From Anaeromyxobacter sp. (lineage in GTDB: Bacteria > Myxococcota > Myxococcia > Myxococcales > Anaeromyxobacteraceae): a stretch of 64,000 nucleotides of DNA. Position 1 is the first letter of the stretch. Every line of letters begins with the position of its first letter. The translations under genes and the position numbers were made by a program. Of the stretch, positions 32,223-34,247 are shown piece by piece. The DNA lies in NCBI GenBank assembly GCA_049840735.1, contig JASGJN010000017.1:416001-480000 (forward strand). The letters run 5' to 3'. The notes below the pieces were generated by a model. The model saw nothing but the letters and a program-made list of their open reading frames with translations, was not told where the DNA came from and did no database searches.

Positions 32223-34247
32223 ATGCCCTTCCGCTTCCAGCCCGGCGCCGAGGACCCGACCACCCGGGCCCGCCGCGGCGTCTTCACCACCCGTCACGGC
32301 CGCGTCGAGACCCCGGCCTTCATGCCGGTCGGCACCCGCGCCACCGTCACCGGCCTCACCCCCGGCGACCTGGTGGCGCTCGACGCCCAGATCATCCTGG
32401 GCAACACCTACCACCTGCTGCTCCGGCCCGGCCCGGAGGCCTTCCGCGAGCTGGGCGGGCTGCACCGGTTCATGCACTGGGACCGGCCCATCCTCACCGA
32501 CTCGGGCGGCTTCCAGATCTTCTCGCTCTCCGAGGACCGGACCATCACGGAGGAGGGCGCCACCTTCCGCAGCTACATCGACCAGCGGCGCCACGTCCTC
32601 TCCCCCGAGTCGTCGATCGCCATGCAGACCGCGCTCGGCTCGGACGTGATGATGGTGCTGGACGTCTGCCTGCCCTCCACCTCGCCGCGCCCCGAGCTGC
32701 GCGCCGCCATGGACCGGACCCACCGCTGGGCGCTGCGCAGCCTGGCGGCGCGGACCGATCCCGAGCAGGCGCTCTTCGCCATCGTGCAGGGCGGCCTCGA
32801 TCCCGAGCTGCGCGACGCCTCGGCCCGCTTCCTGCGCGAGCACCCCTTCGACGGCTTCGCCATCGGCGGCGTGGCGGTGGGGGACACGCGCGAGCAGCGC
32901 GCCGAGGTCATCGCCCGGGCAGCCGAGCTGCTCCCGCGCGACCGGCCGCGCTACCTGATGGGCGTGGGGACGCCGCCGGACCTGCTCGAGGCCGTGGCCC
33001 ACGGCGTCGACATGTTCGACTGCATCATCCCCACCACCATGGCCTGGCAGGGGACCGCCTTCACCTTCTCCGGCCGCGTCCGCCTGACCCGCACCGAGCT
33101 GCGCCTGGCCGACGTGCCGCTCGACCCGAGCTGCCCCTGCCCCACCTGCCGCGACCACTCGCGCGCCTACCTGCACCACCTGTTCAAGTGCCGCGAGCCG
33201 CTGGGGCCGCGCCTGGTCTCGATCCACAACCTGCACCACTACCTGGAGCTGATGCGCCGCGTCCGCGCCGCCATCGAGGCCGGCACCTACGCCGCCTTCG
33301 CCCGGGCCACGCTGGAGGCGCTCGACCGCCACGAGCACGACCGCTCGGCGCGGCCACCGGGGCGGCGCGTCGAGACGGTCGCGCCGGCGCCGGTCCGCGA
33401 GGTGGTCCAGCCGCTCGATCCCGCCGCGGCCAGCGCCGGCGCGCGCTTCGAGCTGGTGCGGACCTCGCAGGGCGCGGCCGCGGTGCGCGACGCCGAGGCC
33501 GGCGAGGTGATGCACCCGGTGATCGGCCCGGCGGTGGAGTCGGAGCGGCTCTACGTGGCCCAGGGGCGGCTGCGCGAGCGGCTGGCCCAGCCCGGCCCGC
33601 CGCTGGTGCTGCTGGACGTTGGGCTGGGGGCCGGGTCCAACGCGCTGGCCGCGCTGCGGGCGGCCCGGGCCGCGCCGGCGGACGGGCGGGCGCTGGAGCT
33701 GGTCAGCTTCGAGCGCGAGCGCGGCGCGGCCGAGCTGGCCGCCTCCGAGGCCGGCGTGGCCGCGCTGGGGCTCTCGGCCGAGGACGCCGCGGCGCTCCGC
33801 GCCCTGCTGGTCACCGGCCGGCACGAGGAGCCCCGCGCCCGCTGGCGGCTGGTGGAGGGGGATCTGCTGGAGACGCTGCCGGCGCAGGCGGTGGAGGCCG
33901 AGCTGGTCTTCTGGGATCCGTTCAGCCCCAAGGCCAACCCGGCGCTCTGGACCCAGGCCGCCTTCGAGGCGGCGCGGGCCCGCTGCGGCCCGCGGGCGCT
34001 GCTGCTCACCTACAGCACCGCCACCGCCATCCGGGCCGCGCTGCTGCTGGCCGGCTTCTTCGTGGGCGTGGGCGACGCCTCCGGCCCCAAGGAGCAGACC
34101 ACCGCCGCCGCCACCGACCCGGCGCTGCTGGAGCGCCCGCTGGACGCGCGCTGGCTGGCGCGCCTGGCCCGCTCCTCGGCCCCCTTCCCGCCCGACGCGC
34201 CGCCCGACGCGCTGGAGCGGATCTCCGCCCACCCACAGTTCAGGTGA
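32223..34247 (+). CDS. tgt: tRNA-guanine transglycosylase fused to an MnmC-like SAM methyltransferase domain
   Basis: [44 protein letters not shown] Zn site; then MHP..G...ES...[27 protein letters not shown]. Confidence 0.88.

Follow-up and report, generated by a model that had tools for sequence, protein, structure and literature searches.

A single gene within a 64,000-nucleotide stretch of an Anaeromyxobacter sp. genome (GCA_049840735.1, contig JASGJN010000017.1, positions 416,001 to 480,000 of the forward strand; the window in what follows) joins a paralog of the bacterial tRNA guanine transglycosylase Tgt, here called Tgt2, to a methyltransferase related to MnmC2. We found that Tgt2 forms a clade whose members are fused to, adjoin or are co-inherited with one methyltransferase clade in several phyla. 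As read from the sequences, the two halves fairly probably make up some coupled route to a methylated form of preQ1 (7-aminomethyl-7-deazaguanine); in the specific version that we tentatively favour, Tgt2 would place preQ1 at G34 of tRNAs outside the GUN anticodon set and its partner would N-methylate the inserted preQ1. The fusion is real and conserved, has already been catalogued as a domain pair and, as far as our literature searches reach, is functionally unstudied.

The fused gene runs through 674 codons from ATG to TGA in one frame without an internal stop, and the GC content at third codon positions is 0.98 in the Tgt half and 0.98 in the methyltransferase half. In Pfam profile searches, residues 15-366 matched TGT (PF01702, E 8e-148) and residues 425-630 matched PF05430 (E 9e-17), which bears out the description in an earlier note on this DNA of one frame joining a complete Tgt to an MnmC-like methyltransferase; the motifs quoted in that note (DSGG with D93, DMFD with D266, the zinc site and GGVAVGD) were all located at the expected places. 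The protein passed the equivalog cut-off for tRNA G34 Tgt (TIGR00430, 448.2 bits vs a cut-off of 306.75), and its methyltransferase half scored 79.5 to 82.5 bits against the MnmC2 profile NF033855, below the cut-off of 136. Both Pfam domains were present in 119/119 other fusion homologs among the matches listed, which rules out an assembly artefact as the origin of the fusion. The named close homologs are Anaeromyxobacter or Anaeromyxobacteraceae proteins with 69-78% identity that are annotated merely as Tgt. Apart from positions given as the protein's own, Tgt residues are numbered as in Zymomonas, transferred by alignment, and methyltransferase residues as in E. coli MnmC. The gene and its parts are the following:

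32223-34247, + strand: gene for the fused Tgt paralog (Tgt2) and MnmC2-like methyltransferase, 674 amino acids; both domains by profile match.
32223-33338, + strand: Tgt2 domain, residues 1-372; PF01702 and TIGR00430 above cut-off, 48% identity to the ordinary Tgt of the genome.
32499-32501, + strand: D93, equivalent to Zymomonas D102, catalytic aspartate of DSGG; by alignment to Zymomonas, in 120/120 close homologs and 135/135 distant fusions.
32865-32885, + strand: GGVAVGD, residues 215-221, equivalent to G229-E235 of the preQ1 pocket loop; G230, A232 and V233 kept, L231V local, E235D limited to one clade.
33018-33053, + strand: D266, the nucleophile (Zymomonas D280), followed by residues 267-277 with R286 replaced by T and R289 by W, the mark of the family; by alignment and tree.
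33132-33227, + strand: zinc site C304, C306, C309 and H335; each in 135/135 distant fusions.
33339-33434, + strand: variable linker, residues 373-404; by alignment, with a stop and restart in its place in split forms.
33435-34244, + strand: MnmC2-like S-adenosylmethionine (SAM)-dependent amine methyltransferase, residues 405-674, with D565 equivalent to E. coli MnmC D178 and K623 to K236; by match to 3vyw and conservation.

A tree was built from 168 Tgt domains, with fragments spanning fewer than 300 profile positions excluded, and in it Tgt2 formed a single clade of 58 (support 1.0) that nests among the bacterial Tgts. R289 was lost in 57/58 members of this clade and R286 in 56/58; outside it, R289 was found in 110/110 sequences and both arginines in 108/110. 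Similarly, none of the 244 scorable proteins among 245 full-length fusions had an arginine at 286 or 289, the latter position being occupied by Q in 120 and by W in 113 of them. The fusion of the window carries T272 (R286), W275 (R289) and T43 (K52), and T takes the place of K52 in 120/120 close homologs. While the earlier note had located the divergence of this protein in its base pocket, the family is marked by the loss of R289 and mostly of R286, and the 11-residue stretch after D266 (residues 267-277) that had been taken for a part of the pocket was mislabelled and lies outside it. Metagenome Tgt loci were scored as well, taking the best 80 of 595 by likeness to the query and thus not at random. 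Both arginines were present in 68, and a methyltransferase lay near none of these 68; R289 was lost in 7, six of them fused and the seventh at a contig edge, and the remaining 5 were unscorable for the arginines.

R286 and R289 are said, in work by Xie and colleagues from 2003, to bind U35, a part of the UGU identity element. Our literature searches found no passage linking Arg286 or Arg289 to U35; for other residues, the passages of the sources cited here by identifier describe that K52 contacts U35 (10.1101/2020.09.01.277731), that an insertion after strand 8 of Tgt serves sequence-specific reading of the anticodon loop (PMC10164549) and that K292 and R320 of E. coli Tgt bind the anticodon stem (PMC13416341). 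The two stem-binding positions are basic (K/R) in 129/135 and 131/135 distant fusions, respectively, a conservation that points to a tRNA target, and D267 on the U33 side is kept in 135/135. Since the common change falls on the RNA-reading surface (R286, R289), it is probably the target RNA rather than the inserted base that changed in Tgt2. A comparison of the G34 anticodon loops of the host genome singled out no target tRNA.

As for the base pocket itself, D102, D280, D156, C158, Q203, G230, L231, A232, V233, E235, M260 and the zinc ligands are kept in 135/135 distant fusions, so that the claimed difference from canonical Tgt is not supported. The protein of the window has D156, C158, Q203, G230, A232 and V233 as well as an acid at 235, with the replacements L231V and E235D. 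Valine at 231 occurs in 21/120 close homologs (L in 99/120, and in 135/135 distant fusions) and also in some ordinary Tgts, and D at 235 is found in 120/120 close homologs vs 0/135 distant fusions. GGVAVGD as a pocket changed throughout the family was hence rejected, V231 being local and E235D limited to the clade around the fused gene. Besides, G204 is replaced by A in 133/135 distant fusions. In passages of PMC5699537, V233 and C158 mark preQ1 over queuine, and L231 and A232 mark preQ1 over preQ0 (7-cyano-7-deazaguanine); a motif rule for the preQ0-type pocket reads GG-h-s-bulky-bulky (in a passage of PMC10164549). The queuine-type pocket (V233G, C158V) is absent from the fusion, which retains V219 and C149 at these positions, and the preQ0 type of DpdA and archaeal TgtA does not apply either, given the GGVAVG motif and a TIGR00432 score of 135.5 vs a cut-off of 350. 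Because the kept residues fit the rules of both papers, the Tgt2 pocket is, judged by its residues, of the preQ1 type and neither of the queuine nor of the preQ0 type.

The association of the two halves extends well beyond the fused form. A motif scan of GTDB genomes, which detects the AWQG clade only, returned at least 119 loci, of which 80 with flanks were used and 39 without flanks excluded. Of these 80, 25 were fused, 47 had the methyltransferase as the next gene (split forms), 4 lay at a contig edge and 4 had no partner nearby, the assignment to fused or split being uncertain for a few frameshifted long-read loci. When five unpartnered loci were tested, the partner was found elsewhere in the genome for four, and unlinked halves mostly still co-occur in the same genome. 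Across the phylum, 33/151 genomes had the partner (E <1e-50), and Tgt2 was present in 33/33 of them, lying 10-15 kb from the partner in 7 and on a separate contig in 2; motifs of Tgt2 were read at the partner loci, in the 30 best Tgt matches and in 10 more regions, and weaker copies may escape. As all 33 carriers have Tgt2, while MnmG was found in 17 and not in the other 16, the partner methyltransferase follows Tgt2, and MnmEG is neither needed nor replaced. We likewise rejected the module as a replacement of the MnmEG pathway on the grounds of the 17 carriers with MnmG and the guanine-type pocket. Judging by a few source names, the distant fusions come from Oligoflexia, Bdellovibrionales, Opitutaceae, Spirochaetes and Binatia. 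Carriers in culture include Anaeromyxobacter oryzae Red232 with the fused form (L062) and, with the split form, Sorangium sp. So ce1014 (L094) and Nannocystis exedens DSM 71 (L018). In one genome whose Tgt2 keeps R286 and which yielded no usual partner, a different SAM-methyltransferase-like open reading frame lies ~2 kb downstream of Tgt2 (L051:2794-3729, minus strand).

The METHYLTRANSFERASE half, i.e. the MnmC2-like partner, has as its closest solved chain 3vyw, a stand-alone MnmC2 (E 6e-13). Its D565 (D178) is present in 174/174 sequences and F567 (F180) in 171/174, the K623 (K236) position is K or R in 166/174, and the D26 position is E in 173/174; for E. coli MnmC, D178 is proposed to activate the amine and K236 is assigned to RNA binding (in passages of PMC3648344). 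The partner methyltransferases grouped together (39/39, support 1.0) when placed in one tree with 13 further MnmC2-like domains; Y28 is replaced by M in 38/39 of these partners and F29 by H in 39/39. Their sister group consists of seven stand-alone MnmC2-like genes from other families of the phylum (L302-L306, L311, L312), which have the DPF motif in common with the Tgt2 partner and all come from genomes with MnmG. The usual substrate of MnmC2 is made by MnmE together with MnmG. Neither MnmE nor MnmG was found over the profile cut-off in the host genome, nor in the 61 family genomes examined (0/61), several of which are closed, and because of this the usual MnmC2 substrate is probably not made in this family. 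Elp3, YtqA/MnmL and MnmM were not found in the host genome either. MnmA is present there, alongside tRNAs with UUU, UUC and UUG anticodons, despite no MnmE/MnmG having been found. In another family, f10, just 2/20 genomes had MnmG. The host genome also has tRNA-Arg UCG besides the usual ACG (C14:242810-242884, C22:644944-645018).

The earlier note had proposed looking for a second canonical tgt and for que genes, and both were found. On another contig (C13), queA and yajC flank an ordinary tgt whose product has the usual PTRTARNG motif, and queF and queG, the further que genes covered by the search, are present in the host genome. The fusion is not the queA-linked Tgt of the genome, a role held by the copy on contig C13, which rules it out as the only Tgt and makes it a paralog. 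The same holds across the family: 46/61 genomes have the methyltransferase, 45 of these 46 have a second Tgt locus (loci read by hand), and the single exception is a genome of 90% completeness. Some near-complete family genomes lack the module (e.g. G009, 99%), and the Tgt2-methyltransferase module is therefore dispensable. Among the metagenome loci, queA lies beside 0/7 Tgt2-type loci vs 33/68 ordinary Tgt loci. The ordinary Tgt of the host (L001:1483-2694, minus strand, on contig C13) carries a Tyr in place of Leu231 (GGYAVGE), and its DSGGFQVFSL is followed by an insertion, at which the TGT profile match of the ordinary Tgt breaks in several relatives.

From these comparisons we infer that Tgt2 would swap the wobble guanine for preQ1 through the usual D280 intermediate, and that its target would be the anticodon loop of a tRNA without U35, i.e. 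outside the Tyr, His, Asn and Asp set. Its partner would then move a methyl group from SAM onto the 7-aminomethyl group of preQ1, in the way in which MnmC2 methylates the 5-aminomethyl group of uridine; the methyl group would cap the amine that QueA would otherwise use. The predicted product is 7-(methylamino)methyl-7-deazaguanosine in tRNA. As a guess, a Gln or Trp in position 289 might suit A35 (Phe, Ile, Leu, Val). We favour methylation of the inserted base because MnmE/MnmG were found in 0/61 family genomes while 46 of them kept the methyltransferase. The earlier note had suggested a paralog that inserts a different base or methylates the inserted one; the second part stands as the best reading, and the first is at odds with the canonical pocket.

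Several observations weigh against the proposed route. K52 is K or R in 135/135 distant fusions, position 290 is R in 95/135 of them and could stand in for R289, K occupies 286 in one large Tgt2 clade, and R286 is retained in 6/75 scored loci of the GTDB motif scan; the reading of U35 may thus have been relaxed or rebuilt instead of being lost. No partner of Tgt2 was found in G155 (100% complete; the Tgt2 gene lies at the end of a contig), in G167 (75%) or in G203, and genome G189 has three Tgt2 copies, one fused and two unpartnered (L204/L215, L205/L216, L163). The genomes are kin and no independent samples, and the counts of co-inheritance come without a test statistic. QueF is present in 31/33 carriers but in 129/151 genomes of the phylum overall and hence has little weight. 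In the 17 carriers with MnmG, the partner is the only MnmC2-like match to the query and MnmM was not found, and the partner could serve 5-aminomethyluridine (nm5U) there. The latter would agree with independent halves, in which the methyltransferase makes 5-methylaminomethyl-(2-thio)uridine (mnm5(s2)U34) from nm5(s2)U34 supplied by MnmEG or in some other way, and Tgt2 serves as a spare copy or an RNA-binding scaffold. The methyltransferase keeps catalytic D178 and RNA-binding K236 of MnmC2, MnmA is present in the host, and a preprint, in the passage concerned, places the fusion among the MnmC2 fusions of genomes with MnmA, MnmG and MnmE (10.1101/2023.12.21.572861). However, no MnmG was found in 16/33 phylum carriers and in 46/46 family carriers, Elp3 and YtqA/MnmL are likewise missing from the host genome as searched, the partner forms a separate clade with its changes at 28 and 29, and Tgt2 has intact catalytic residues in 33/33 carriers, which together make independent halves unlikely. 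If, on the other hand, the GUN tRNAs themselves were the target, Tgt2 would load preQ1, the partner would methylate it before QueA acts, and methyl-preQ1 would compete with queuosine under some conditions. The canonical pocket and D267 (U33) are compatible with this, as are K52 in the distant members and the possible replacement of R289 by R290, yet the ordinary Tgt already loads GUN tRNAs, so that a methylase alone would suffice. Moreover, the arginine at 289 that all 110 ordinary Tgts of the tree possess is the one that 57/58 Tgt2 clade members lost, and K52, R286 and R289 are all gone in this gene; we thus regard a GUN target as quite unlikely.

The target could also be another nucleic acid, such as another tRNA position, a hairpin in mRNA or rRNA, or DNA, the last with a DpdA plus a DpdM-like partner yielding methyl-preQ1 in DNA. 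Passages in the literature describe methyl-preQ1 in phage DNA (10.1101/2023.04.13.536721) and the acceptance of non-tRNA hairpins and uracil-containing DNA by bacterial Tgt (PMC8136771, PMC4425180). Against this stand the passed equivalog cut-off for tRNA G34 Tgt, the nesting among bacterial Tgts and the kept residues that bind the anticodon stem. PADLOC gave no match at the fusion locus, DNA-processing neighbours did not recur around the module in 110 loci, and searches with the methyltransferase half returned nothing from 50,697 phage records and, from 72,556 plasmid records, one match that was weak and partial (33% identity); we consider this explanation very unlikely. Equally unlikely is the insertion of a different base, for instance preQ1 that the partner methylates beforehand as a free base. 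The replacement E235D, shared by all 120 close homologs, touches the L231-A232 peptide flip, which admits the preQ1 amine (in a passage of PMC3660597), and alanine in place of G204 in the distant members would be in line with a different base. Yet in the 135 distant fusions the pocket is canonical throughout, E235 included, and the methyltransferase keeps K236, a residue for binding RNA.

The preprint mentioned above, 'Alternate routes to mnm5s2U synthesis in Gram-positive bacteria' (10.1101/2023.12.21.572861), names the TGT-MnmC2 pair (PF01702 + MnmC2) in one sentence. In its main text 'tgt' occurs once, in a passage that neither proposes nor tests a function, and its set is restricted to genomes with MnmA, MnmG and MnmE, unlike the Anaeromyxobacteraceae, a family in which MnmE/MnmG were not found. 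The paralogy, the split forms and the loss of R286/R289 do not appear in these passages, and the supplements of the preprint may hold more. Within the reach of our literature searches, which left most subscription papers and preprint supplements aside, we found no study of the fusion and no report of methyl-preQ1 in RNA. With bacterial Tgt (E. coli, Zymomonas mobilis; TIGR00430), the fusion has in common the fold family, D102/D280, the preQ1 pocket, the zinc site, D267 and the basic residues that bind the stem; unlike it, Tgt2 forms a separate clade beside an ordinary copy, has lost R289 and mostly R286, and is tied to a methyltransferase. With MnmC2/MnmC(m) (the N-terminal domain of E. coli MnmC, Aquifex 3VYW), it shares the SAM motif, D178, F180, E101 and K236, whereas its partner half stays below the NF033855 cut-off, belongs to a clade of its own with Y28M, F29H and E64D, and persists in genomes that yielded no MnmE/MnmG. 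The fusion thus resembles a Tgt plus an MnmC2 in its workings but departs from the queuosine-34 Tgt in its arginines and genomic role, and from MnmC2 in the cut-off and the missing MnmEG. The chemistry proposed for it has a counterpart in phage DpdA2 and DpdM, where, according to passages of 10.1101/2023.04.13.536721, the transglycosylase inserts preQ1 and its partner N-methylates it to mdPreQ1. DpdA2 and DpdM act on DNA, however, and DpdA is only distantly related to Tgt while DpdM has an unrelated metal-binding fold, in contrast to the fusion, both halves of which are tRNA-type enzymes.

If the preferred reading, insertion of preQ1 into non-GUN tRNAs followed by its N-methylation, holds true, N-methyl-preQ1 would be an undescribed wobble nucleoside made by a two-enzyme pathway across several bacterial phyla. 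Tgt2 would then be the first Tgt of bacteria to show a new specificity for anticodons, its partner the first enzyme of the MnmC2 type to act on a deazaguanine, and the rule that limits 7-deazaguanines at position 34 to tRNA Tyr, His, Asn and Asp would be broken. That a Tgt could be retargeted by two or three residues would bear on decoding and on Tgt-based RNA labelling tools, and many genes annotated as 'tRNA guanosine(34) transglycosylase Tgt' would not encode the queuosine enzyme. The riboside of methyl-preQ1 is predicted at m/z 326.1, i.e. the deoxy form at 310.1 given in a passage of 10.1101/2023.04.13.536721 plus one oxygen.

Two genes flank the fusion closely in the window:

31609-32205, + strand: DTW-domain gene with an uncertain start codon (PF03942, E 5e-32), ending 17 bases upstream of the fusion.
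34253-35236, + strand: alpha/beta hydrolase gene (PF00561, E 2e-18), starting 5 bases downstream of the fusion.

The DTW-domain gene, which we take to belong to the TapT family of tRNA enzymes that make 3-(3-amino-3-carboxypropyl)uridine (acp3U), has a Cys-rich N-terminus. It was found near the fusion in just 6/110 loci and the hydrolase gene was absent from the recurring neighbour clusters of these loci, so that both are local neighbours rather than conserved parts of the module. A third partner of either kind was ruled out, as no neighbour cluster occurred in more than 13/110 loci; in this survey, neighbouring open reading frames were filtered by a rule on third-position GC content, and some neighbours may escape. 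No promoter- or terminator-like site was seen in positions 31300-35500 of the window, a result that carries no information at this GC content, and no RNA feature is listed for the locus. Further upstream (27549-29108, plus strand) lies a gene for a probable secreted protein or lipoprotein with ~16 copies of a collagen-like (GPT)n repeat followed by a propeller-like domain; it has weak matches to PF01391 and PF07494 and recurs in 13 related loci. Downstream, on the minus strand (36441-39564), is a respiratory cluster with a multiheme cytochrome-like gene, a 4Fe-4S ferredoxin, NrfD (PF03916) and a small cytochrome c, in which the multiheme cytochrome-like and 4Fe-4S genes were assigned from motifs. 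On a metagenome contig (L224:6001-8028), the fusion lies between a histidine-utilisation gene cluster and rpsG-fusA-tuf, as read from the sequences of the open reading frames.

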